In this document: positions 13,465-26,327 of the stretch, in pieces | How the letters are laid out: each line of letters starts with the position of its first letter | Numbering within the stretch: the first letter of the stretch is position 1 | Assembly (NCBI GenBank): GCA_948695535.1 | Contig: CAPRTS010000007.1 | Coordinates: 3,164 to 67,163 of the forward strand | Direction: 5' to 3' | Source of the DNA: an uncultured Eubacteriales bacterium | GTDB lineage: Bacteria > Bacillota > Clostridia > Christensenellales > UBA1242 | Length of the DNA stretch: 64,000 nt | The notes under the pieces: generated by a model | Told to the model about the DNA's origin: nothing | Databases searched by the model: none | The model's input: the letters and a program-made list of their open reading frames with translations, nothing else | Position numbers and translations under genes: made by a program

Positions 13465-13490
13465 TTAACCATACTATGTTGGGGGAACGA

Positions 13491-16400
13491 ATGAAATACG
13501 GGCGAGGCCGGGTAATTGCTGTCGCACTGTTAAGTACGGTGCTGGCTTTGTTGCTGTCTGGTTTCGGTTTTTTATTAGGTTTCAGTAATTTGCAAACCCA
13601 AGCTGGTGATAATGATAATTACGATCCTTATCATATTCCAACTTTTGACGAAGCCTATGTCTTTGACCCAATTACCACTTCTGGCGAAATAACCTTGGGG
13701 CAAAATGCGGGGGCGGCAACAATATTTGCTTTACGTGATGAAAGTTACCGAAGTGATAGTGTCACTGCTTTGTTTAACGCCTCCCAAAAATTAGGTTTTA
13801 GTTCTTTACGCAACAAACGCAATCGCGATCCTTACGCCTTGTTTACTGACGCTGATATGCAAAGTATTGTTAATGGTATTGGCATGAATGATTATGGCGT
13901 CAAGTACGACGATAATAATGGTAATGGTCAATTTGATTATGAAGACCAAAACGGTAATGGCCAGTTTGATGTCGGGGAAGACACGAAGCAAGATAAGTTT
14001 GTGGCTTATTGTTTGCAGACGCCGGTGATTATGTTAGATACGATTAACGTTAACCAAGCAATCGTTTTTGAATTGTTGAACTTGCCACTGGCACCGTCAA
14101 TTAACAAAATGACGCAAAATGGGGAGAATATTCCTATTAAAAATATAGTTTTGGCCAGTGGGCAAAATGCGGATCACGTTTACGGCAGCAGTTTTACACA
14201 GACCACGATGCCCATGACCAAAGAGGAAGTTAAAGCTTTTAATGACCAAAAACGCCAAGAAATTATTCAAGGTAACGTTGGCTTAAACAAAGGTGATCCG
14301 GGTTGGATTGACCCCGATGACCCCGTTAATTATTTGGATTACGACGCTATGTTGGCAAAAAATACCTACGAAATGATTGGTGCGGGGGCGGTAGCCAGTT
14401 GTGGTACCAGCCTGCGCGGGGTTTTTAATCAAGAAGGGTTGTACGAATTTGATTTTACTTTATCGGTGCCGGGAGCTAATGGGGTGATAACCGAAATCAA
14501 ATTGGCGTTTGCTTTTTATATCACTGATCGTTCGCATTATACTGCTTACCCCAGTTTCCCTGACGAAAATCGGGCCGCGGGCAATGGTAATGTTTATAAT
14601 TATTCTTTTGGTGGCGAATATCCTATGGTCACTTATAACGAAAACTACTTTGATGTTGTTATTACCAGTACGGAAAAATATGCTGACAGTGCCAATGATG
14701 ATAGTATTCAAAATGCCGGCGACGGACGCACTTTGCAGTTTTCTGCGGTGGGGGAATATACCATGACCAGTTACCTGAAAAACTATTATTTTTACGTTGA
14801 CCAAGCTGACCCGAGTAAAAGTATTTATCGCGAACTGCGGTTGCCGCGTTACCGTGCTAATGTTAGTGTTCTTTATATTCGTGGTTTCCAAGCCTATTAT
14901 GGTGGACAACACAACCAACCCGAATACAACGGCCCGTTACCATTTTACAATGCCAGCACTGTTAACAGTAACATAACGCCATGGGTAACCAATAACCATT
15001 ATAACTTGGTCGATATGGTGAAAAACAAAAATCCTGACGCCAATGCGACTCTCGCTTACGCTAAGTTATTGACTGATGTGCTTGATCGTGAAGATGCCAA
15101 AAAAGAAGATGACTCCACAAAATTGGTGCCAATTCGTACTAACTTCCCACCCGTACAATTTGTCGGCAACGTCAATCACGCCTATGGTGCCGGCTTGGGC
15201 GGGGAAAACGTGCGTTTATCGACCGTCAGTTTCAAAGGTGTCGATGATTTTTCGTGGGGTGAACCGACTACTTATGAGCCGGGAAAGCCTTTTACTGATG
15301 CGGGTCGCTACTTGGTAATGATGTATTTCTGGGTTAATAAAACCTTATGTCAACAAACCTTTTACTTTGAAATTAGTAACGCCTTAGAAATGAAATTTGC
15401 CGTTACGGGTACTGAAGGGAAAGGTTACGAGATTTTAGAATATGACGAATTAGTACGTAAGGGGGGACGAGCACAAGGTAAAGCAATCACAATTATGTAT
15501 AACGGTGCAACTAAATTAGGTGAATTTGAAGTGCCACCGACCATCACTTTGGAACGGGCGTCATTAAACGACCCACGTCATTTTACCGATATAGAAATCA
15601 ACAAGGCAACTGATGGTTCTTTTAATTTTTATTTGGCACCGGCATGCTATCGTTTAACTGTCGTTTACGGAGCCTATGGTCAAGCCGCAACGGTAATCGA
15701 ATTGTTGGTCGATAACACGTCCGCAACCAATATAACGACCACTGCGCAATACCAACAACCACGGCTAAGCAATTTACCCACCAATACAGCGATATGGGGA
15801 ATGGGAAATATTACCTTATCGTGGGATAAAAAAGTCAGTGGCATTGGTTTCCGTAACGTTCAGGTTGATTATTACCGCAGTTTAATTGAAGATGCCAAGG
15901 CAGATCCTAATGCAGCCATAAATTATACTAATTACGACCCCAGCCAAACCAATTTGTTTGCAACCACAATTTTTAGTGAAGAACGTACTGCCACTCGTGA
16001 TTATACTCCGGTGTTGGCGGACGACCGCTGGTGTTTAACGGAAAAATTTAATCAAGCCGGAGTGTATTTGATTACGTTGACTGATGACGTGGGTAATGAA
16101 ACACAATATTTATTGATCATTGATGATGCTAAACCAACGTTTGTGCAAAAGTCGCCCGCACCCGTTAATTCGTCTAATGTAGTTGCCTATGATAAAAATG
16201 GTATTAATGTCGGCTTTGGTCGCAACAAAATGGTGATGTTCAATGTTGATTTAGCCAATGATGCGCCTTTTAAGGATTGGCAACAGTTTGCTGACTTGCG
16301 TGAGCAACAACTGATTGTACCGACGGCAACTGGTAAATACGCTTTGTCAATACCGTTGGCCAAGGCCGAAATGAACGTTAATGGGGGAGTATACGAAACT

Positions 16401-19400
16401 TTAAGTCGAGCTGAGCTGGAACTTGGTTATAAAATTGTCTATAAAGATGATACTTACTACTTTCGCGTTACTGATGTCTTGGGTAACGTTAGTGAGTATT
16501 ATATTATTCTTAGTAACGACATTAGTCGGGGCATTATTTACGCGGAAGACAGCGAGCAATCGTTTTCCAGCACGCGGGGTTTTTTGGCGAATAATAAACC
16601 CAACATGATGACCAGTTTGGTTACCGCTAAGGGTGGTATGACGAATCGTAATTATTTGACTTTTTCTTTTGACCAAGTAGAAAAAGGAGCAACCGCTTAT
16701 CGGGTAAGTACAATAAAACTGGAATATTACCCATTTACCTTTGATACTAAATCACCGAATTATCCGTTCGCGGCTAATCCGGTAACTTACTTACGTGGCC
16801 GTCAAGACAGTGCGGGAATTATTTACCGAGTTGATAATAGTGAACAAGGTGATGGCAAGGGCACATTCCGTTTGGCACTTTACAACAGTGGGGAAATTAC
16901 TCCGCGTGGTTTGTTTATAATTACGCGTACTTATGAAACCACAAGCAGTGATGATACAACGCGGGCGTATTATTTTATCGTTGATGACCGACCAATGTTG
17001 TCTTACGAAGCGAACGTCTACCAAAGTGATCTGCGGATTCGTTTCGGTGCCGACGATAAAATCGCTAACGCCAAAAAGTTTGAAGATTTCCATTACGAAT
17101 TGCGTAGCAATCGCGCTGCCGAAATTGCTGGTTATAGCAGTAAGTATCATGGCACCACGCGTTATTTGGGTTACGACTTTCCGTCGTTAATTCCCCGATT
17201 CAGTTGTGTCAATAATGGTCAAACAACCAACCTTGGCGAAGGGGCAATCAACGTGGTTTTGGGTAACGAATCGACAGGTGATGTTAATTACAAATTAGTT
17301 GTGGCTGATAACGCCCGTAATTTCCCCGTCTTGTTGACTGGTGGAGCCATCACGGAAATAATTCCTACCGGCAAAAGTACAAGTGCTAATTACAGTGAAT
17401 TGTTATTGATATTGGATACCGGCTATGGTACTAAGGCTCAATTGATCAAGAACGGACAAAATAACACGCCAATTACTAACACTCAAATGGAATACGATGT
17501 TGAGACGGGCGTTTACACTTACGTTGTTGATCCCGATGACATCAAGACGTTGACTTTTGAATTTACAAGCGATCCAGATAGTCTTTATGCCGACATTGAT
17601 ATTGAGGAAACTACCGCCAGTTGGTTTACCATCGGCTTAGACCACTCAGCGTACATCGCGCCGGAAATTGACGGAACAATCTATCGTTACGACATTGCTA
17701 ATACTTTTCTCAACAGTGCCGGTTTCCGTAGTGGCGCAAGGGTTGGGGTCTCGTTAATTACTAAGGATAACCAACACACCGATTACAATATTGTTTTTGA
17801 TTTGGACGATGGAGAACCAACCTATAACTTACGCCGCATTATCGAACAAGATAATTTAGCAAAAGACTTGGCGGAAATTCCCGACGGTTATATTTACGGG
17901 TTGAGTACAAAATTTGTTTTTGCTCCCGACACTACTGGTAATCGTTATTTGGATACCAAGGAAATTTCTTACCGTGAAGTTAATTACCAAGGTGACGGTT
18001 CCTTGCCGAAAACTATTTTCCGCTTAGATTCAGGTCTAACTTTTGCCGATATTGTTGGCTTACGTGACAACGAAATGAAATACTTCCGCATTACGGAAAC
18101 TGATTACGCAGGACATGTTGATGATTACGTTGTGCAGATTCAGGGTAAAAAATACAACGGGGCTGTTACTTATGTGGGGGCTATTCCTGATAAGAATACG
18201 GACGATGGTACCGTGTTGGGAATTGAAATGCGAGTCGCGACTGCCAGCGCACAACAATTTTACCGTAATAACAATTCCTTTAAATTTGTTAATGGTGAAG
18301 AATATTATGCCGTCTACTGTGGTACCGCCAAATGGTATTTGAACGGTAAGGCAGGAACAGGAGCCAGCAGTGAAGCCGAATTAGTTGCCGTCTTGAACGA
18401 ATGGATAAACGACGCCACGGAACTTGGTCAGCGTTGTCGTTATGTGCTTTATGACCGAATGGGGGAACCTAAGGTTTTTGCTTGTTATAATTTACGTGAA
18501 GACGCAGTGAAATTACAGTTAGAAGCGTATAATCTAATTCCTGACGCAGTGGTCACCAGTCCGGTTTGTTTGCAGACTGTTAACTACGATAGCTTGCCTT
18601 TGATTTTGAAAGATCCGGATTTGGCAAAGTTTTATCAAATTAAAATTACCGATGTCGCTACGCAAAGACCACTTGATAATAACTTGACCTTTACTTTGGG
18701 GATAACCACTTTATATAATATCAGCCAAGGACAAGAACTGATTATTGAAGTTACTGACCCCTTTAACCGTGTTAGTATAACTGAGTATCATGGTCAAGAC
18801 GAGGTGGGTTTGCAATTTGCACCTTACGGTAATACGGTTGATATTGAGGGAGTGACCTATGTCGGCGACAGTCGCGGTGTGCAATTTTCGTTCTTGCGTA
18901 CGGTTTACACCATTAACGTTTACAACGCTGATACGGGAGCGTTAGTTGGTAACTTGCCGACCTTTATTCAAGGTGATAAAGTCACTTATTCCTTTGTGCC
19001 GTCGGCGTTACGCGCGGATACCACTCGGTACCGCCTGGAAGCCGTAGGGCGTTCCAGTCATGCTGTTCTATACGAAAAAATCTTTGCTTTTGATACCCGT
19101 TTACCACAAGTAATTTGGACAAAAAGTGATGACCAAGAAATTGCGGTTAACGATCATACTTTCACTGGTACAATTAATCTGCACGTGGTCCCCAATCCGA
19201 TGTTACGTTTCAGCACTACGGTAAGTTACCAACGTACGTTTAACGGTATGGTGGAACAGGTAACCTTACCGAAGGGAATAGAAACTTTCCAATTCGACCA
19301 AAGTGGTGATTACGTGGTAACCTTACGTAACGCAATTTGGGCAACTAGTGTTTATAATTTCAAAATCGCCAATACCAGTGAAGCCTTAATAAATGTTTAC

Positions 19401-21041
19401 GACGATGATCAGTTATTAACCCCCAGTACCAGTATGTACTTTTATCAAGGCGTACCAATAAATAATTACATTTTTACCATGGAAACACGCGTTAATGATA
19501 ATGGTGTAGAAGAATTGTTAGATTTGACTAATTATGAGGCGCATGGCTTACGTTTTATTCCTGCCGAAACCAGTAACCGGCAATTGGTATGGCGTAATGA
19601 AAATCAAGCGTTTCAAGAGTATGACCGTCAAAACAATACCTTGGTATGGCGTTTCGCCGTAGTGTCAAAAGATGAATTTGGACAAACGGTTTACACTAAT
19701 GATTTATATTTGGCAACTACGGGGGTTCCGCGTGCTGACATTAAAGGTTTTACGTTGGCCATTAACGAAGATAATTTGCGACCATATCACGAAACTTACC
19801 GAATTTTGACGGCTGATAAAATTCCCAGTACTGGTATTAGTTTGCGTTTGCAAACAGACAACAACAATGAAACGGGAATCCCAGATGAGTACAACACTTC
19901 CCCTGGTAATAGCGTTTTGGTTGACTGTTACCGCAATGGGGAATTGGTTAAGACTTTGACTCACGAAGAAACTTTTAACCTAACGGCGGGGGACGCTGGT
20001 TATTATCAATTCCGCGTGCACGACTTGGTAGGTAACACGTTGCAGTTTGGTAACAATGGTGCCGAACAGGATTATTATGCATTGGTAATTTTAACTAAAC
20101 CAATGGTGGTAATCAATGATGCCAATCCCGTTAAACACATGATTTATAACGATCGGGTTGAATTTAAAATTACTGATGACGTTGAGCATTTATTACAGTT
20201 AGAGTATGGCGAAGAATTTTTTAACCAATACTTTAAGATCGCCAGTTTAGAAGTTACCTGCAACGGTGAGCCGTTAACCATAGATTTAAAAAGTAATCCT
20301 ACCAGTTTCTTGTGGGATCAACAAGGTACCTACTTAGTGCGCTTAAAATACCAAATTGGTGAAACCTTACAACAAACCATTGAAGACCAATACGAATTTG
20401 AAATTATTCCGCGTTATACCGCAATGGCCAGTTGGAGTATGAATATCTATCCAGATATCCGTATTCTTTCGGTACGGCGTAACAATTATTTGCTGCGCGA
20501 CTTCGTTGAACCGGCTGTCGGAGAGGCTTTAACTTTCGCGGCTGAGGAAAATACGGGACATTACGAAATTGTTTTGCAAAGCCATGATGTGATTAACGGC
20601 TATAAAACGCATACGATTGAGTTCAACATCAATTATAAAAATAGCAATTCGTTGAACTATTTCTGGTTAGATACCGCCAGTGGCTTATCGACAACTACTG
20701 CGGTTACCCTTAGTTACCAGCCTAAAATGCTTTATTACGCACGTGGTGAATGCAGAATTACTCTCTATAAAGATTTCAAAATGGTTGAAACCCGTGAAAT
20801 TAATGCTGATTCGGTGGCCGAAATGGGAATTAACGATTTGGCGACTTTATCGGCAAGTGCTGTCGGTTTGTACACAGTTCAAGTGCTTGATGAGGAGGGT
20901 GACATTGTTTATGCTGACAGTTGGACAATTGCCAAAGGAAAAAGTTCGACAGGAATGATTATCACGGCGATTATTGCGGGTATTGCGGGGCTTGGGTTGA
21001 TTGTGTTTATTCGTTTACGTCGTAAGATAACAGTTAAATAA
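13491..21041 (+). CDS. Giant (~2,516 aa) surface protein with TM segments at both termini and repeated Ig-like modules
   Basis: Uninterrupted ORF. ATG 13491 is preceded by GGGGGAA (13481-13487); the in-frame ATG at 13476 is an alternative start. N-terminal TM: VIAVALLSTVLALLLSGFGFLLGF. C-terminal TM: MIITAIIAGIAGLGLIVFI, followed by an RLRRK tail. A duplicated NGNGQFD acidic loop is present. The module signature GxYxhxhxDxxGN recurs (see findings). Confidence 0.9.
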   Translation: MKYGRGRVIAVALLSTVLALLLSGFGFLLGFSNLQTQAGDNDNYDPYHIPTFDEAYVFDPITTSGEITLGQNAGAATIFALRDESYRSDSVTALFNASQKLGFSSLRNKRNRDPYALFTDADMQSIVNGIGMNDYGVKYDDNNGNGQFDYEDQNGNGQFDVGEDTKQDKFVAYCLQTPVIMLDTINVNQAIVFELLNLPLAPSINKMTQNGENIPIKNIVLASGQNADHVYGSSFTQTTMPMTKEEVKAFNDQKRQEIIQGNVGLNKGDPGWIDPDDPVNYLDYDAMLAKNTYEMIGAGAVASCGTSLRGVFNQEGLYEFDFTLSVPGANGVITEIKLAFAFYITDRSHYTAYPSFPDENRAAGNGNVYNYSFGGEYPMVTYNENYFDVVITSTEKYADSANDDSIQNAGDGRTLQFSAVGEYTMTSYLKNYYFYVDQADPSKSIYRELRLPRYRANVSVLYIRGFQAYYGGQHNQPEYNGPLPFYNASTVNSNITPWVTNNHYNLVDMVKNKNPDANATLAYAKLLTDVLDREDAKKEDDSTKLVPIRTNFPPVQFVGNVNHAYGAGLGGENVRLSTVSFKGVDDFSWGEPTTYEPGKPFTDAGRYLVMMYFWVNKTLCQQTFYFEISNALEMKFAVTGTEGKGYEILEYDELVRKGGRAQGKAITIMYNGATKLGEFEVPPTITLERASLNDPRHFTDIEINKATDGSFNFYLAPACYRLTVVYGAYGQAATVIELLVDNTSATNITTTAQYQQPRLSNLPTNTAIWGMGNITLSWDKKVSGIGFRNVQVDYYRSLIEDAKADPNAAINYTNYDPSQTNLFATTIFSEERTATRDYTPVLADDRWCLTEKFNQAGVYLITLTDDVGNETQYLLIIDDAKPTFVQKSPAPVNSSNVVAYDKNGINVGFGRNKMVMFNVDLANDAPFKDWQQFADLREQQLIVPTATGKYALSIPLAKAEMNVNGGVYETLSRAELELGYKIVYKDDTYYFRVTDVLGNVSEYYIILSNDISRGIIYAEDSEQSFSSTRGFLANNKPNMMTSLVTAKGGMTNRNYLTFSFDQVEKGATAYRVSTIKLEYYPFTFDTKSPNYPFAANPVTYLRGRQDSAGIIYRVDNSEQGDGKGTFRLALYNSGEITPRGLFIITRTYETTSSDDTTRAYYFIVDDRPMLSYEANVYQSDLRIRFGADDKIANAKKFEDFHYELRSNRAAEIAGYSSKYHGTTRYLGYDFPSLIPRFSCVNNGQTTNLGEGAINVVLGNESTGDVNYKLVVADNARNFPVLLTGGAITEIIPTGKSTSANYSELLLILDTGYGTKAQLIKNGQNNTPITNTQMEYDVETGVYTYVVDPDDIKTLTFEFTSDPDSLYADIDIEETTASWFTIGLDHSAYIAPEIDGTIYRYDIANTFLNSAGFRSGARVGVSLITKDNQHTDYNIVFDLDDGEPTYNLRRIIEQDNLAKDLAEIPDGYIYGLSTKFVFAPDTTGNRYLDTKEISYREVNYQGDGSLPKTIFRLDSGLTFADIVGLRDNEMKYFRITETDYAGHVDDYVVQIQGKKYNGAVTYVGAIPDKNTDDGTVLGIEMRVATASAQQFYRNNNSFKFVNGEEYYAVYCGTAKWYLNGKAGTGASSEAELVAVLNEWINDATELGQRCRYVLYDRMGEPKVFACYNLREDAVKLQLEAYNLIPDAVVTSPVCLQTVNYDSLPLILKDPDLAKFYQIKITDVATQRPLDNNLTFTLGITTLYNISQGQELIIEVTDPFNRVSITEYHGQDEVGLQFAPYGNTVDIEGVTYVGDSRGVQFSFLRTVYTINVYNADTGALVGNLPTFIQGDKVTYSFVPSALRADTTRYRLEAVGRSSHAVLYEKIFAFDTRLPQVIWTKSDDQEIAVNDHTFTGTINLHVVPNPMLRFSTTVSYQRTFNGMVEQVTLPKGIETFQFDQSGDYVVTLRNAIWATSVYNFKIANTSEALINVYDDDQLLTPSTSMYFYQGVPINNYIFTMETRVNDNGVEELLDLTNYEAHGLRFIPAETSNRQLVWRNENQAFQEYDRQNNTLVWRFAVVSKDEFGQTVYTNDLYLATTGVPRADIKGFTLAINEDNLRPYHETYRILTADKIPSTGISLRLQTDNNNETGIPDEYNTSPGNSVLVDCYRNGELVKTLTHEETFNLTAGDAGYYQFRVHDLVGNTLQFGNNGAEQDYYALVILTKPMVVINDANPVKHMIYNDRVEFKITDDVEHLLQLEYGEEFFNQYFKIASLEVTCNGEPLTIDLKSNPTSFLWDQQGTYLVRLKYQIGETLQQTIEDQYEFEIIPRYTAMASWSMNIYPDIRILSVRRNNYLLRDFVEPAVGEALTFAAEENTGHYEIVLQSHDVINGYKTHTIEFNINYKNSNSLNYFWLDTASGLSTTTAVTLSYQPKMLYYARGECRITLYKDFKMVETREINADSVAEMGINDLATLSASAVGLYTVQVLDEEGDIVYADSWTIAKGKSSTGMIITAIIAGIAGLGLIVFIRLRRKITVK

Positions 21042-21894
21042 GTACGTCAAACAATTGTCGAAAGCGATCAGTAATGTATTGTTGTGGCGCCGAAGCACCG
21101 GGTCGGTGTAAACCTAAGATGGTGAGACTGCCACCGCTGGAAAGGCAACTGCTGTCGCATAATAGACTTTCTAAATCAGTAGCAGCAGCGACGGAAATGT
21201 ATTGTGGGTCTATCAAACCCATCCGTTGCATGCAGTTATTAAATACCGTAAACATTTTATCTAAACTGTCAATTAAGATTACAACTTGTTCACCGCGACT
21301 GGCCAGTTCTTTGGCGTGGAAAAAAGCCAATAAACAAATTGTTAATTTATCGCGACTGGTTTGCGTGATTTTAGTTAAATACAGATTGCGGTAGTCCGTC
21401 AATCTTTCGGCGCGACCATCAAAAGAAAGTACAATTTGGGTAACGTTTGGTGGCAGTTGGGCGGATAAACTTGCTAAACGGTCAAGGGTGTTACTGTGGT
21501 CGTCCATGGTTAATAAAACTGTTGTGCCACAATTAACTTTACAGCCGTCCAGTTGGTAAGTTTGGGTACAGTTGACCGTGGTTACGTCATCGTAGTTTAC
21601 TTTGGTTACTTGGGCAATGTCGGTAACCAGGTAGTTATTGTAATTGGTGGCGTAATCAACAGTGGCACGAATGCGGTCGCCGGTTTGTAACTGATAATGC
21701 TGAATAAAATCACACGTTATGAAGTAGGGAACGCAATCTTCGGTAATAAAGATAGCATTACCATTGGCAAGAGTGTGGACATACCCCGTCAATTCCTGCG
21801 CATCCGGGTTCGTAACAATGCTACGCGCGTAGTTATCGTTAAGCCCGCTAATAACGTCGTCGAAAACACAAGATAGGTTGGGTAATAAAAGCAT
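21034..21894 (-). CDS. Rho-derived protein lacking the Walker A P-loop (Rho-like pseudo-ATPase)
   Basis: TGYVHTLANGNAIFITED...YQLQTGDRIRATV aligns to the Rho RNA-binding OB domain. VLSFDGRAERLTDY aligns to VLLIDERPEEVTDM. VVILIDSLDKMFTVFN aligns to VVILLDSITRLARAYN. GGSLTIL matches GGSLTII. At the PPKAGKT position the protein reads TMDDHSNT. The start was set at ATG 21894. Confidence 0.6.
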   Translation of the reverse strand: MLLLPNLSCVFDDVISGLNDNYARSIVTNPDAQELTGYVHTLANGNAIFITEDCVPYFITCDFIQHYQLQTGDRIRATVDYATNYNNYLVTDIAQVTKVNYDDVTTVNCTQTYQLDGCKVNCGTTVLLTMDDHSNTLDRLASLSAQLPPNVTQIVLSFDGRAERLTDYRNLYLTKITQTSRDKLTICLLAFFHAKELASRGEQVVILIDSLDKMFTVFNNCMQRMGLIDPQYISVAAATDLESLLCDSSCLSSGGSLTILGLHRPGASAPQQYITDRFRQLFDVLI

Positions 21895-21938
21895 AACTTT
21901 TATTTTAAGGTATAAACCAAACAAGTGTCAAACTAACA

Positions 21939-22727
21939 CTATTCAAGACAGTAGCAGTTCCCGATACGACTCTGTAAAGCAACATCGATATATAAGTCGC
22001 GTCCTTCGTGAATCCCTTGGATTGCTAAATACTGTTTAACGGTTTCGTAAGCCAAACGTGGCGTGTTGTTCTTTTCACTTAAATGCGCCAGAATAATTTG
22101 ACTGACTTGCTGTTGGTACAATTTGGCGATAGTTTTTGCACAATCTAAGTTGGATAAATGGCCACGGTTGCTTAAAATACGTCGTTTTAACCACTCTGGG
22201 TATTTGGGATTCGCCAGTAGGGTCTGTACATCATGGTTGGCCTCTAATACAACAATTTGACAAGTGCCTAAGTACGCGAGAATGGTATCGGTCATTTGCC
22301 CAATATCGGTGGCAATGCCGACCGTAGTGTTGTTGTGGGTGAAAGTGTAGCCTAAACAAAAATGGCTGTCGTGGGGAACAGGAAAGTAATTGATGGTCAA
22401 ATCACCAATGGTCGGGTTGTCGGTAAATTCCTGAAAGTAGTGGGGTGGTAATTTAGTGTAACGGCGTAAAATTCCGGTAGTTTTTTGGTGGCAATAAATT
22501 GGCGTATCATATTTAACTACAAAGTCAGCGACGCCTTTAAGGTGGTCACTGTGTTCGTGCGTAATTAAAATGCCGTCAATGCTGTTAGGGTCTATCTGGG
22601 CCTCTGCCAGTAATTTATGGGTTAACGATAATGGTAAGCCGATATCAACTAACAAGTTAGTGTTTTCGGTACCGATGAAAGTAATATTGCCTTGGCTGCC
22701 GCTACTTAACGTTTGTATTTTTAACAC
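21939..22727 (-). CDS. MBL-fold metallo-hydrolase (YycJ/WalJ-like)
   Basis: SSGSQGNITFIGTENTNLLVDIGL and ILITHEHSDHLKGV are typical of the YycJ-type MBL family. Confidence 0.85.
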   Translation of the reverse strand: MLKIQTLSSGSQGNITFIGTENTNLLVDIGLPLSLTHKLLAEAQIDPNSIDGILITHEHSDHLKGVADFVVKYDTPIYCHQKTTGILRRYTKLPPHYFQEFTDNPTIGDLTINYFPVPHDSHFCLGYTFTHNNTTVGIATDIGQMTDTILAYLGTCQIVVLEANHDVQTLLANPKYPEWLKRRILSNRGHLSNLDCAKTIAKLYQQQVSQIILAHLSEKNNTPRLAYETVKQYLAIQGIHEGRDLYIDVALQSRIGNCYCLE

Positions 22728-23339: not shown

Positions 23340-24405
23340 ACGCTATACCGTGACCATAATCGTTTATCTTACCGCGATGGTATTATTAGTGCTGTTGCAA
23401 ATTTTGGCGTCAGTAGGTTGTTTTGCGGCTTTAAGTGACGAAGCCGTAACCATTATCGGCAGTATCTTGCCACAAATTGTAATTATGTTACTTGTGCCGT
23501 TTTTGATGCTGTTATTCGCCCAAAAGATTGGTGGCGAGCCCGTTAGTGTCCGACGCATAGTTGAACACGTTGGCTGGCACAGAATGTCGGTTAAAAATGT
23601 ATTGCTGGTCTTTTTGTTGGGGATTTGCTTATATCTATTGAACATATTTGTTGCCAGTTTCTTTGGTTTAATTTTGCAATCTTTTGGTTACCAATACCCC
23701 GATAACCCCAACGTCTTTACGGGGTGGGGGGGATTGTTAATAACACTCTTGTTAACGGCAGTCTTGCCAGCACTTTGTGAAGAATTTTTGCACCGTGGCG
23801 TTTTATTGAACGGACTGATCCCGCAGTTTGGTGTCACCCGGGCAATTCTGTTGGTAAGTTTATTGTTTGGCTTGATGCACATGAACGCAGGGCAGTTTTT
23901 TTACGCGACCATTTTGGGATGGTTCTTTTGCGTAACGGCATTGTCAGCCCGTTCGCTATGGGCCAGTGTTATTGTGCATTTTGTGAATAATGCTTTGGCG
24001 ACTTATTTCAGTTACGCCGAAGAATTGCACTTGCCCGGAATGAACATTTTAAATTATTTACTAAGTAATCCGGTGTTGGTAATTTTAACTTTATTGGTGG
24101 CTGTGGTTGCCATCGCGGAAATTCTCCGTCACTTAGCCCGTGAAAACTTTGAACGCAATTTGGATACTTATACCGTGCGTTATTTAGCGTCCCAGAACCT
24201 ATTTGACGCAAGTGATTTTGATCAAGTGAAAAATGCCTTACCCCGTGCGATTAAAAGCATGCCGACGTGGAAAGCAACCATGGCGTACATTGAAACTTTC
24301 GACGTGCCCAAGCGTTCTAAACCTTTGCCGAAAGCCTTGTTATGGGCGGTTTGCGTGTTAGGCAGTGTAATCACTATTTTATCTTTGGTGTGGGGAACCT
24401 GGTAA
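23326..24405 (+). CDS. CPBP (CAAX-type) intramembrane glutamic endopeptidase, longer paralogue
   Basis: Motifs CEEFLHR, FGLMH and HFVNN, with additional C-terminal TM segments. It overlaps the preceding CPBP gene by 14 nt. Confidence 0.85.
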   Translation: MQPNKRYTVTIIVYLTAMVLLVLLQILASVGCFAALSDEAVTIIGSILPQIVIMLLVPFLMLLFAQKIGGEPVSVRRIVEHVGWHRMSVKNVLLVFLLGICLYLLNIFVASFFGLILQSFGYQYPDNPNVFTGWGGLLITLLLTAVLPALCEEFLHRGVLLNGLIPQFGVTRAILLVSLLFGLMHMNAGQFFYATILGWFFCVTALSARSLWASVIVHFVNNALATYFSYAEELHLPGMNILNYLLSNPVLVILTLLVAVVAIAEILRHLARENFERNLDTYTVRYLASQNLFDASDFDQVKNALPRAIKSMPTWKATMAYIETFDVPKRSKPLPKALLWAVCVLGSVITILSLVWGTW

Positions 24406-24797
24406 TGGATTTTATGGCAGAGGCGGTTAAACAAGCCCGGCGGGCGGCGAAACGCGGGGAAGTACCAGTCGGTTGTGTTATTGTCCGCGAAAACCGGATT
24501 ATTGCTGCTGGCTATAACCAACGTGAACGTCGGCGTAATAGTTTGTGGCATGCAGAAATGGTGGCAATTAACCGCGCGTGTCGTAAATTAAGGTCGTGGC
24601 GTTTAGACGATTGCGTAATGTACGTGACTTTATCACCTTGTCAAATGTGTATGGGAGCGATTATTAACGCCCGCTTGCAAGCCGTTTACGTTGGTGCCGA
24701 GTCCACCAGTAACCTTAATTGGCAGACGCCAATTATTATGCAACCTAACGCCGTAGCAAAAAACATTTTAGTGGCTTTTTTTCGTGAACGGCGTTAA
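24405..24797 (+). CDS. tadA: tRNA-specific adenosine deaminase
   Basis: Motifs EVPVGCVIV, HAEMVAI and PCQMC (zinc-binding CDA fold). The start was set at the in-frame ATG 24405, which overlaps the TAA of the upstream gene. Confidence 0.9.
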   Translation: MDFMAEAVKQARRAAKRGEVPVGCVIVRENRIIAAGYNQRERRRNSLWHAEMVAINRACRKLRSWRLDDCVMYVTLSPCQMCMGAIINARLQAVYVGAESTSNLNWQTPIIMQPNAVAKNILVAFFRERR

Positions 24798-24806
24798 ACT
24801 TAAATT

Positions 24807-26327
24807 GTGAAGCAACAATTAAACAACGTAATCGCGACTTTGGGATTTATGATGTTATTTGCGGCGGCTGTTTTGGGTGTCTTGGTTGCCGTATTGTTTC
24901 TGGTTCCTGATGCCGCTTTGGGTAATATGGTGGCGGTCAATGAACGAGATACCCAAATTGTTTATTGTGACGACGTGTTAAAAACTGCATTTGCGCGGGG
25001 TAATTTTATTATCGAAAGTGATAATTGTGATGTTGTAGTACAAGTTAATACGGCAGGCTACGTTGGTGAAAGTACCGTTGTGATTAACGAAAACGCTACG
25101 GGAATCGCTTTCAACAGCCGTAAACGCACTTTGGTGGAATGGACAACTACCATGATTGAAGAAATGCCTTATTGTAAAATTCGGGTATTGGAACCAACGG
25201 GAATAGTAGTGAACAGCAAACCAACTACGGTTTATTTGAATTTATCCAGTCAAACACCGGTGCACAATTTTATTTTGCAAAATAAATACAGTAACGTGAC
25301 TTTTCGTTATGGTGATGATGTTGACCCAAACCGCGAGCATTTGTGCATTAACAATTTGGCCGTGCGCAGTGCTTCCAGTGTCACTCTACCATCTTACGAT
25401 ACAATTACAATTAACGAAGTTGCGTTAAGCTGTAACAATACTCAATTTACCTGTGGCGGTATAGTTAACGGTGGTGTTACGGTTACTGGTAACCGGGCTA
25501 CAATTAACTTTAATAACACCATTAAGGGCGATGTATTGATTAATGGTGAAATGAATAAGTTTCGAGCCAGCAAAGTCGGTAACATTGTTTTTGGTGCCCA
25601 AGAGGGTAGTTGCACCGTTAATGAATGTCAACAATTAACCGTCAATACCACCAATGCTAATATAACTGTTGACCGTATTCGGGGTGGGGTAGCAATGAAC
25701 ACCGTTAACGGCTCTTTGCAAGTTAATGAAATTACCAACGGCGGTTTGACTTTTACAGCCACAGCCACAGCCAATGTAAATGTTAGTGGTACCTTAACGG
25801 GTGATGCTGTGGTTAGAAATACTGGTGTCGGTAATGTCAATTTGCAGGGCGTTGTCGGCAATGTTGATATTGAAAGCAGTCGGGTTAACGGTGGTAATAT
25901 TGATGTTGGCTTCGGCAGTACCAAGCAATACAGCACTACGATTCGCGGTTATGACGGGGATATTACGGTACGCAATATTTATGGTGATGTGGATATTCAA
26001 GTGCGTGACAGCGGGGCTGGTGGTGCCGCAGGACGCGCCAATATTACGGCTTACTTTAACTATATTACTACCAATGCTAATAACCAAATTGTAGCAGGCG
26101 CGTACGTTAATTCGCCGTCGGGTATGGGGAATATTAACCTTTATTTACAATCTGGCTGGAATGATTTTGTTCTGTCAGTAAAAAATGCCCGTTCGGCGTG
26201 GGCCTTTGTGGGTACCAATAAGGCTCGACAATTGGTTAAGGGTGATAATGGGCTGTATGAAGGAAGTAATGTACATGTTGCGGGAAAATTAACCGTTAAC
26301 ACTCCGGCAGACTTGCGTGTGCATTAA
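24807..26327 (+). CDS. N-terminally anchored beta-helix repeat protein (DUF4097/adhesin-like)
   Basis: 506 aa with a GTG start and the TM LGFMMLFAAAVLGVLVAVLFLV. Many short repeats follow, of the type VNGG.ITV.G, GDVLING, NGSLQVNEITNGGLTF and GNVDIESSRVNGGNIDV. Confidence 0.7.
   Translation: MKQQLNNVIATLGFMMLFAAAVLGVLVAVLFLVPDAALGNMVAVNERDTQIVYCDDVLKTAFARGNFIIESDNCDVVVQVNTAGYVGESTVVINENATGIAFNSRKRTLVEWTTTMIEEMPYCKIRVLEPTGIVVNSKPTTVYLNLSSQTPVHNFILQNKYSNVTFRYGDDVDPNREHLCINNLAVRSASSVTLPSYDTITINEVALSCNNTQFTCGGIVNGGVTVTGNRATINFNNTIKGDVLINGEMNKFRASKVGNIVFGAQEGSCTVNECQQLTVNTTNANITVDRIRGGVAMNTVNGSLQVNEITNGGLTFTATATANVNVSGTLTGDAVVRNTGVGNVNLQGVVGNVDIESSRVNGGNIDVGFGSTKQYSTTIRGYDGDITVRNIYGDVDIQVRDSGAGGAAGRANITAYFNYITTNANNQIVAGAYVNSPSGMGNINLYLQSGWNDFVLSVKNARSAWAFVGTNKARQLVKGDNGLYEGSNVHVAGKLTVNTPADLRVH

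Follow-up and report, generated by a model that had tools for sequence, protein, structure and literature searches.

A motor-less descendant of Rho, probably a pseudoenzyme kept by selection, at the rho position of a reduced-genome Clostridia family

[quoted passage not shown] This gene is the only Rho descendant of its lineage, and the family to which the organism belongs is without canonical Rho. Our analysis makes it likely that the gene is the positional orthologue of rho itself, turned into a motor-less pseudoenzyme and kept as such by selection. The original prediction, made from the letters of the window, had described a Rho-derived protein of 287 amino acids (aa) that aligns along most of Rho, including the OB domain, and that has no Walker A loop, no helical domain at its N-terminus and no C-terminal end. 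This description was borne out by the analyses given below, apart from the length, which is 286 aa.

The window protein is a true homologue of Rho, with a similarity far beyond chance. The NCBIfam Rho equivalogs matched it with E-values of 5.5e-10 and 2.3e-9, at scores below both cut-offs (38.6 bits versus 315 for NF006886 and 36.7 bits versus 509 for TIGR00767). The Pfam matches to ATP-synt_ab and Rho_RNA_bind (PF07497, 14.7 bits versus a cut-off of 27) were likewise sub-threshold, yet they fall on the protein in the correct order and at the correct positions. Alignment by hhalign of a profile of 20 family members to an alignment of canonical Rho gave a probability of 97.6 % and E=4e-12, and placed residues 33-263 on residues 49-319 of E. 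coli Rho. When the PDB sequence set was searched with the 20-member profile, Rho chains only were returned (E=3.8e-8). The AlphaFold2 model of the window protein has a mean pLDDT of 82.4 and a pTM of 0.82, and in a Foldseek comparison against PDB all 50 listed matches were Rho (E-values between 3.8e-16 and about 7e-13; TM(query) 0.62-0.71). The profile and structure comparisons with Rho which had been proposed as a check thus found a significant relationship. Fold, hhalign alignment, PDB profile search, intermediate forms and synteny all point to a RecA-like core of the Rho type and to descent from Rho. Descent from F1/V-ATPase or FliI was ruled out, since the profile and fold searches give Rho only and the intermediates carry Rho_N.

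The alignment to E. coli Rho took in 52 subfamily members, 55 sequences from the wider family and, from the same order, 10 canonical Rho proteins. Over residues 192-318 the E. coli reference sequence used here matches the one in the PDB alignment. All of the motifs previously aligned by eye (TMDDHSNT, VLSFDGRAERLTDY, VVILIDSLDKMFTVFN and GGSLTI) were recovered by MAFFT, HMMER and hhalign. The OB-fold domain occupies residues ~33-97 (21604..21798, minus strand); its first residue corresponds to E. coli residue 49 in the hhalign alignment, and the AlphaFold2 strands span 33-97. Only about 32 residues, with low pLDDT, precede it, and Rho_N (PF07498) has no match in the window protein. At the former Walker A site (residues 129-136; 21487..21510, minus strand) TMDDHSNT stands for PPKAGKT, without the Gly and the Lys/Thr of the loop. 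Across the subfamily K181, G183, K184 and T185 are replaced by N, D, I and A, and G183, K184 and T185 are kept in none of the 52 members. The segment VLSFDGRAERLTDY (residues 155-168; 21391..21432, minus strand) corresponds to VLLIDERPEEVTEM of Rho and keeps D210 and R212, while the catalytic Glu, E211, has become Gly, as it has in 51/52 subfamily members.

The Walker B strand and the helix after it are represented by VVILIDSLDKMFTVFN (residues 204-219; 21238..21285, minus strand), the counterpart of VIILLDSITRLARAYN in Rho. Here D265 and N275 are each kept in 52/52 members, and the Arg valve R269 is replaced by Lys in all of them. The adjoining Q-loop region, NCMQRMGLIDPQYIS (21193..21237, minus strand), is remodelled: it is without K283 and T286 and is strongly conserved within the subfamily, with C221, M222 and G226 invariant and Q223, I228, D229 and P230 nearly so. 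In fact, conservation is strongest on the face formed by the former nucleotide pocket and the Q-loop (LSFDGR and IDSLDKMF..FNNCMQ..G.IDP). The last element is the strand GGSLTILGL (residues 254-262), aligned to GGSLTIIAT of Rho and with its GGSLT retained across the subfamily, together with the final helix (269-281 in the AlphaFold2 model; 21037..21135 for the whole element, minus strand). The C-terminus maps to about residue 345 of E. coli Rho (median of 52 sequences), so that some 75 C-terminal residues are gone, and the subfamily has neither R347, R353 and the Arg finger R366 nor the helices of the C-terminus. A Rho-profile search of the window's genome found no separate open reading frame (ORF) matching the C-terminal part of Rho.

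The gene is intact and maintained well beyond a single genome. A word-index search retrieved 53 homologues with 38-81 % identity and lengths of 235-323 aa (most 278-298), all with intact frames; those members that carry a name are annotated "hypothetical protein", and none of the 53 has a Pfam domain. Among 20 diverse members 41 columns are invariant. Nei-Gojobori estimates for 14 genes of the genus gave pN of 0.12-0.23 and pS of 0.60-0.77, that is, a ratio of nonsynonymous to synonymous substitution rates (dN/dS) of 0.05-0.15, with dS near saturation. These sequence comparisons indicate strong purifying selection. They also dispose of a sequencing error that hides a P-loop, which had been named as something that would undo the original reading, because 52/52 homologues are P-loop-less and have an intact frame.

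The genome from which the window comes (907 kb, 82 % complete) was searched with the Rho model, and canonical rho was not found in it; the matches were the Rho relic, present in one copy, and one ATPase of 295 aa. NusG is present in this genome. The Rho cut-off was reached in 0/23 close relatives (17 genomes of the same genus and 6 from other genera of the family), while canonical Rho occurs in 12/16 order-level relatives with genomes of 1.3-3.2 Mb. We then considered an even sample of 121 family genomes, covering 58 genera and sizes of 0.6-1.6 Mb; for 105 genomes of this sample completeness is 90 % or higher. None of the 121 yielded a canonical rho, the best TIGR00767 score being 197 bits versus the cut-off of 509, and a profile of the degenerate forms detected a Rho-like ORF in 117 of them. 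The choice of profile mattered: an order-wide search with a short-form profile gave strong matches confined to the window's genus, and the family-wide picture needed a long-form profile, which was uninformative at the level of the class, where canonical Rho also matched at ~1e-20.

The 295-aa ATPase (locus L002, 1150-2037, minus strand, on contig C5 of the same genome) has an intact P-loop, IIAPPGAGKTTLL. Read by eye, it appears to be SpoIIIAA-like and unrelated to the Rho relic, and it was therefore rejected as a second Rho. Together with sleB and ypeB in relatives, it suggests that this lineage of ~1-Mb genomes still sporulates. Most genomes carry one copy of the relic. Two full-length copies are found in each of G011 (contigs C69 and C11) and G013 (C5 and C17), and in the metagenome-assembled genome (MAG) Tb.RUG.236 (L043, L045) both copies adjoin a copy of tuf. 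Such two-copy genomes could reflect a real duplication together with tuf, or a strain mixture in the MAG.

The position of the gene identifies it as the orthologue of rho rather than a paralogue. The order sleB-ypeB-rho is common to a relative with canonical Rho (G025) and to relatives with degenerate forms (G021, G020, G023). In five further genera (g25, g360, g363, g377, g387) ypeB is followed by the rho-like gene and then by a giant gene that converges on it; in g351 a giant gene is convergent as well, with no ypeB match within the stretch examined. The same tail-to-tail pairing is seen in the window, in L035 (74 % identical), in G008 (L013/L047) and in the genera g3 and g6, where a hydrolase of the metallo-β-lactamase (MBL) fold replaces ypeB. 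Altogether, the pairing of a rho-like gene with a giant gene occurs in at least nine genera of the family. On the basis of this shared synteny the gene occupies the slot that rho had ancestrally and is its positional orthologue. One derived clade of the genus has it beside tuf-plsX-queH-rlu-dnaE instead; most species of the genus show this tuf/plsX/dnaE context, with the giant gene not nearby, and each genome carries one context or the other. That the two contexts represent two ancient paralogue clades was ruled out, as all copies in the tuf context group in a single derived clade, nested among those in the giant-gene context.

The loss of Rho parts across the family is graded. A P-loop of the form GK[ST] is missing from each of the 26 family sequences that were inspected, which represent 20 genera and include 20 further loci from 14 more genera. 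G021 (471 aa) retains Rho_N and the full length. G020 (381 aa) and many metagenomic members (340-385 aa) retain Rho_N and end at ~345, and genus g392 keeps RNP1 (GYGF), LIDERPEE and the TRK finger. In the window's genus Rho_N and E211 have gone as well; its form is more acidic than the longer homologues and is the most reduced seen. In a maximum-likelihood tree these sequences form a ladder that leads from the order's canonical Rho down to the window's genus. A separate case was noted in another family of the same order, in a genome of 1.6 Mb that is 99 % complete (L031, G030:C3): its 429-aa Rho has an intact GKT P-loop, but IDER has changed to LNAR (D210N, E211A), the Q-loop is deleted, and its score of 152 bits falls short of the cut-off. 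This protein may represent a separate, or else an earlier, stage in the decay of Rho, outside the family with reduced genomes.

With P-loop, catalytic Glu and Arg finger all missing, ATP-driven translocation and termination are not to be expected of this protein. It would neither bind nor hydrolyse ATP in the manner of Rho, would not translocate on RNA, and would not terminate transcription as a motor; the earlier expectation that it does not hydrolyse ATP is thus supported by the residues that are missing. As it is the sole Rho relative in a family without the motor, its job would be one that needs no ATP. We favour the reading that the pseudoenzyme acts as a stoichiometric binding or adaptor protein built on the retained Rho scaffold, with the remodelled Walker-B/Q-loop face (IDSLDKMF..FNNCMQ..G.IDP), being the most conserved surface, as its likely working site. 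As a tentative first guess, the partner might be a protein or the transcription machinery (RNA polymerase, RNAP, or NusG) rather than RNA of the rut type.

Several points weigh against the conclusion that rho became a motor-less binding protein kept by selection. The window's genome is incomplete, so that the absence of rho from it rests on the relatives. D210, R212 and D265 are invariant, as is the Lys at R269, and they may outline a remodelled pocket for another ligand. Finally, the branches of the tree are very long; part of the ladder may be due to long-branch attraction, and the order of its rungs is insecure.

A different, and somewhat unlikely, function is that of an ATP-independent regulator that binds RNA. 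Here the OB fold, perhaps assembled in a ring, would hold nascent or mature RNA, for example transcripts of the giant genes, and protect, chaperone or attenuate it. The OB fold is indeed kept and well predicted, Y110 is retained in 32/52 subfamily members, the gene lies tail-to-tail with a 7.5-kb gene in at least nine genera, the longer family members keep Rho_N, and g392 keeps the RNP1 sequence GYGF. However, the residues of the primary RNA site (RNP1, Y80, E108-R109-Y110) are mostly not those of Rho. GFGFLR of Rho reads GNAIFI in the window protein; F62, F64, R66, E108 and R109 are replaced by N, I, I, N and N in the subfamily (F64 by I in 44/52 members, R66 by I in 52/52), and Leu takes the place of Y80 in the same alignment. 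The secondary site has fared no better, with K283 and T286 of the Q-loop changed to L/T and P, and K326 of the R-loop to P. The basic N-terminal domain is absent as well, and according to work cited in the main text of PMC11347177, E. coli Rho no longer binds RNA once its first 27 residues are deleted. The protein is also acidic, with a net charge of -12 and an isoelectric point of 4.66 (net charge of the OB domain -4; subfamily median -7). Classical RNA binding appears unlikely because of the loss of the primary-site aromatics and Arg, the secondary-site lysines and the basic N-terminal domain, and because of the acidity. Of the RNA-binding regulator that had been proposed at first, the OB fold therefore stands, whereas the binding residues, the N-terminal domain and the isoelectric point speak against it.

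Another reading, which we regard as distinctly unlikely, places the gene in a surface-protein system. The acidic relic would dock onto the basic tail (LRxKMKVK) of the giant protein, or onto the adjacent VirD4-like ATPase, and would aid export, anchoring or assembly. The giant proteins of the window (20980-21041, plus strand, for this end) and of L026, L027, L035, L047 and L056-L074 share, in at least nine genera, a C-terminus in which (E)PLN or G(L/M)N is followed by a transmembrane helix and then by a basic tail, (R/K)LRxKMKV(K/R), with which the protein ends; their overall identity is 20-26 %. In favour of docking are this striking conservation of the helix and the basic heptapeptide, the persistence of the pairing in at least nine genera between proteins so dissimilar, the net charge of the relic, and the conservation in G022 of the cluster of type IV coupling protein (T4CP), giant gene and relic. 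Against it, most species of the genus carry the gene in the tuf/plsX/dnaE context with no giant gene nearby, the neighbours include the housekeeping gene tadA, the synteny may be inherited gene order only, and charge complementarity is weak evidence. The link to the giant gene drawn in the original prediction thus holds as conserved synteny; a functional link is conjectural.

The two remaining explanations are effectively excluded. Dominant-negative mutants of Rho are known in E. coli, and a dead paralogue with a Rho-like fold and a partly retained RecA core could in principle join the canonical Rho hexamer and poison or modulate it, with anti-termination as a result, as was initially suggested. 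This is hardly credible here: canonical Rho was not found in the window's genome, in 17 genomes of the same genus, in 6 other genera or in 121 family genomes, so there is nothing to poison; the gene is mostly in single copy and its synteny is that of an orthologue, not a paralogue; and the C-terminal interface elements are absent. Equally improbable is a functionless, decaying relic, a pseudogene in all but name, since the genome-reduced lineage, the progressive loss of motifs across the family and the dispensability of Rho in many Bacillota (main text of PMC11347177) are set against intact frames in 53/53 homologues of conserved length, the 41 invariant columns, the low dN/dS with synonymous sites near saturation, and retention in 117/121 genomes that are ~1 Mb in size and would normally shed a gene of no use.

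Comparison with described systems sets the relic apart. Like canonical Rho (TIGR00767/NF006886; PDB 1PV4, 3ICE, 7OQH), it has an OB fold followed by a RecA-like core, the collinear motifs L.TGD, L..D.R, (I/L)DS....(F/Y)N and GGSLTI, and the ancestral rho locus; unlike it, the relic is without Rho_N, P-loop, catalytic Glu, Arg finger, the C-terminal ~75 residues, the Q- and R-loop lysines and the RNP1 aromatic and Arg residues. The main text of PMC11347177 (Nucleic Acids Research, 2024) describes four structural types of functional Rho, among them a Type 4 without the N-terminal domain. It also covers 'Rho-like' sequences, a loosely defined group with a single domain, and reports that 30 % of Bacillota have lost Rho completely. 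The relic shares with Type 4 the absence of the N-terminal helical domain and would fit the loose 'Rho-like' label, but Type 4 is defined there by model-detected RNA-binding and Rho ATPase domains, both of which are degenerate in the relic. A conserved form without P-loop and C-terminal part that replaces Rho across a clade is not described in that main text, and our literature search for an ATPase-dead Rho family found nothing relevant. The Rho short form NF041509 (paralog_Rho2, 360 aa) is also a shorter Rho relative, with a weak match over the Walker-B region; at 35.3 bits the relic is far below the cut-off of 628 and hence not a member. The family also contains longer motor-less homologues (340-480 aa; for example G021, G020, P0064-P0101). 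They too have no P-loop, mostly end at the same ~345, and occupy the same locus, in many genera with the giant-gene neighbour; in contrast to the relic, they keep Rho_N and often the catalytic Glu (LLIDE), and g392 its RNP1.

The reading frame is open over 21034..21924 (minus strand), which makes 296 codons if counted from an in-frame TTG at 21924. A promoter-like sequence, TTGACA-18-TAAAAT, lies at 21902..21931 (minus strand); it is a consensus match only, with 11/12 positions agreeing. Its -35 hexamer abuts the TTG, its -10 hexamer ends 7 nt before the ATG at 21894, and no Shine-Dalgarno sequence precedes this ATG. Given this placement, the ATG is the most likely start, giving 286 aa plus stop, use of the TTG seems unlikely, and the mRNA may be leaderless. 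The protein database likewise has the 286-aa form, and all homologues (n=52) have an N-terminus that corresponds to this ATG. Relative L035 (74 % identical) shares part of the promoter layout, with a similar -35 hexamer and spacing.

On the downstream side, the convergent gene of a giant membrane-anchored protein of 2521 aa (13476..21041, plus strand) overlaps the stop of the relic by its last 8 bases. This overlap, TTAAATAA at 21034-21041, had been pointed out before and is real, and it is preserved in the window's genome, L035 and G019. No intrinsic terminators above chance were found at the convergent junction. Directly upstream of the relic lies the gene of the MBL-fold hydrolase (21939..22727, minus strand; Pfam Lactamase_B_2, E=2.3e-19), which is adjacent also in L035, L047/L013, G019, G022, G748, G710 and G707 and is absent from the tuf context. 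The surrounding block (window 9851-46828; L026, from G022; L027, from G019; L035; L047) is syntenic in three genera and comprises, in order, a T4CP-like ATPase, the giant gene of about 2.5 thousand aa, the Rho relic, the MBL gene, two CPBP proteases, TadA, a 506-aa protein and a second giant gene. The TadA-type deaminase gene (24342-24797, plus strand; Pfam E=8e-32) has 64 nt in common with the end of the second CPBP gene, and the 506-aa protein (24807-26327, plus strand), directly upstream of the 6804-aa gene, has no Pfam match. Two of the contigs with the Clostridia-type gene and its neighbours, L036 (JAMPCO010000007) and L047 (CAYJJH010000010), were deposited as 'Prevotella sp.' MAGs, probably through mis-binning or mislabelling.

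In the usual description, a bacterium either has a highly conserved Rho or has none. The family considered here adds a third state, a clade-wide, selected pseudoenzyme, kept in genomes from which nearly everything dispensable is discarded; this implies that the Rho scaffold has a use without ATP and, probably, without classical binding of rut RNA. The series of intermediates, in which the P-loop was lost first, then the C-terminus, the catalytic Glu and RNP1, and lastly the N-terminal domain, could help to dissect which parts of Rho serve roles other than the motor, such as contacts with RNAP, NusG or other partners. The finding also means that these bacteria, with genes of 7.5 kb and 20 kb, live without Rho-dependent termination. 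In its broadest form, which we consider unlikely as a whole, the finding would be a family-wide conversion of rho, in at least 58 genera of gut and rumen Clostridia with ~1-Mb genomes, to a long-kept motor-less protein that reveals an ATP-independent activity of the Rho scaffold, be it binding of RNAP or NusG or docking of the giant protein's basic tail. If this holds, the loss of the motor may be linked to the genes of 7.5-20 kb; transcription of such genes would be prone to termination by a working Rho.

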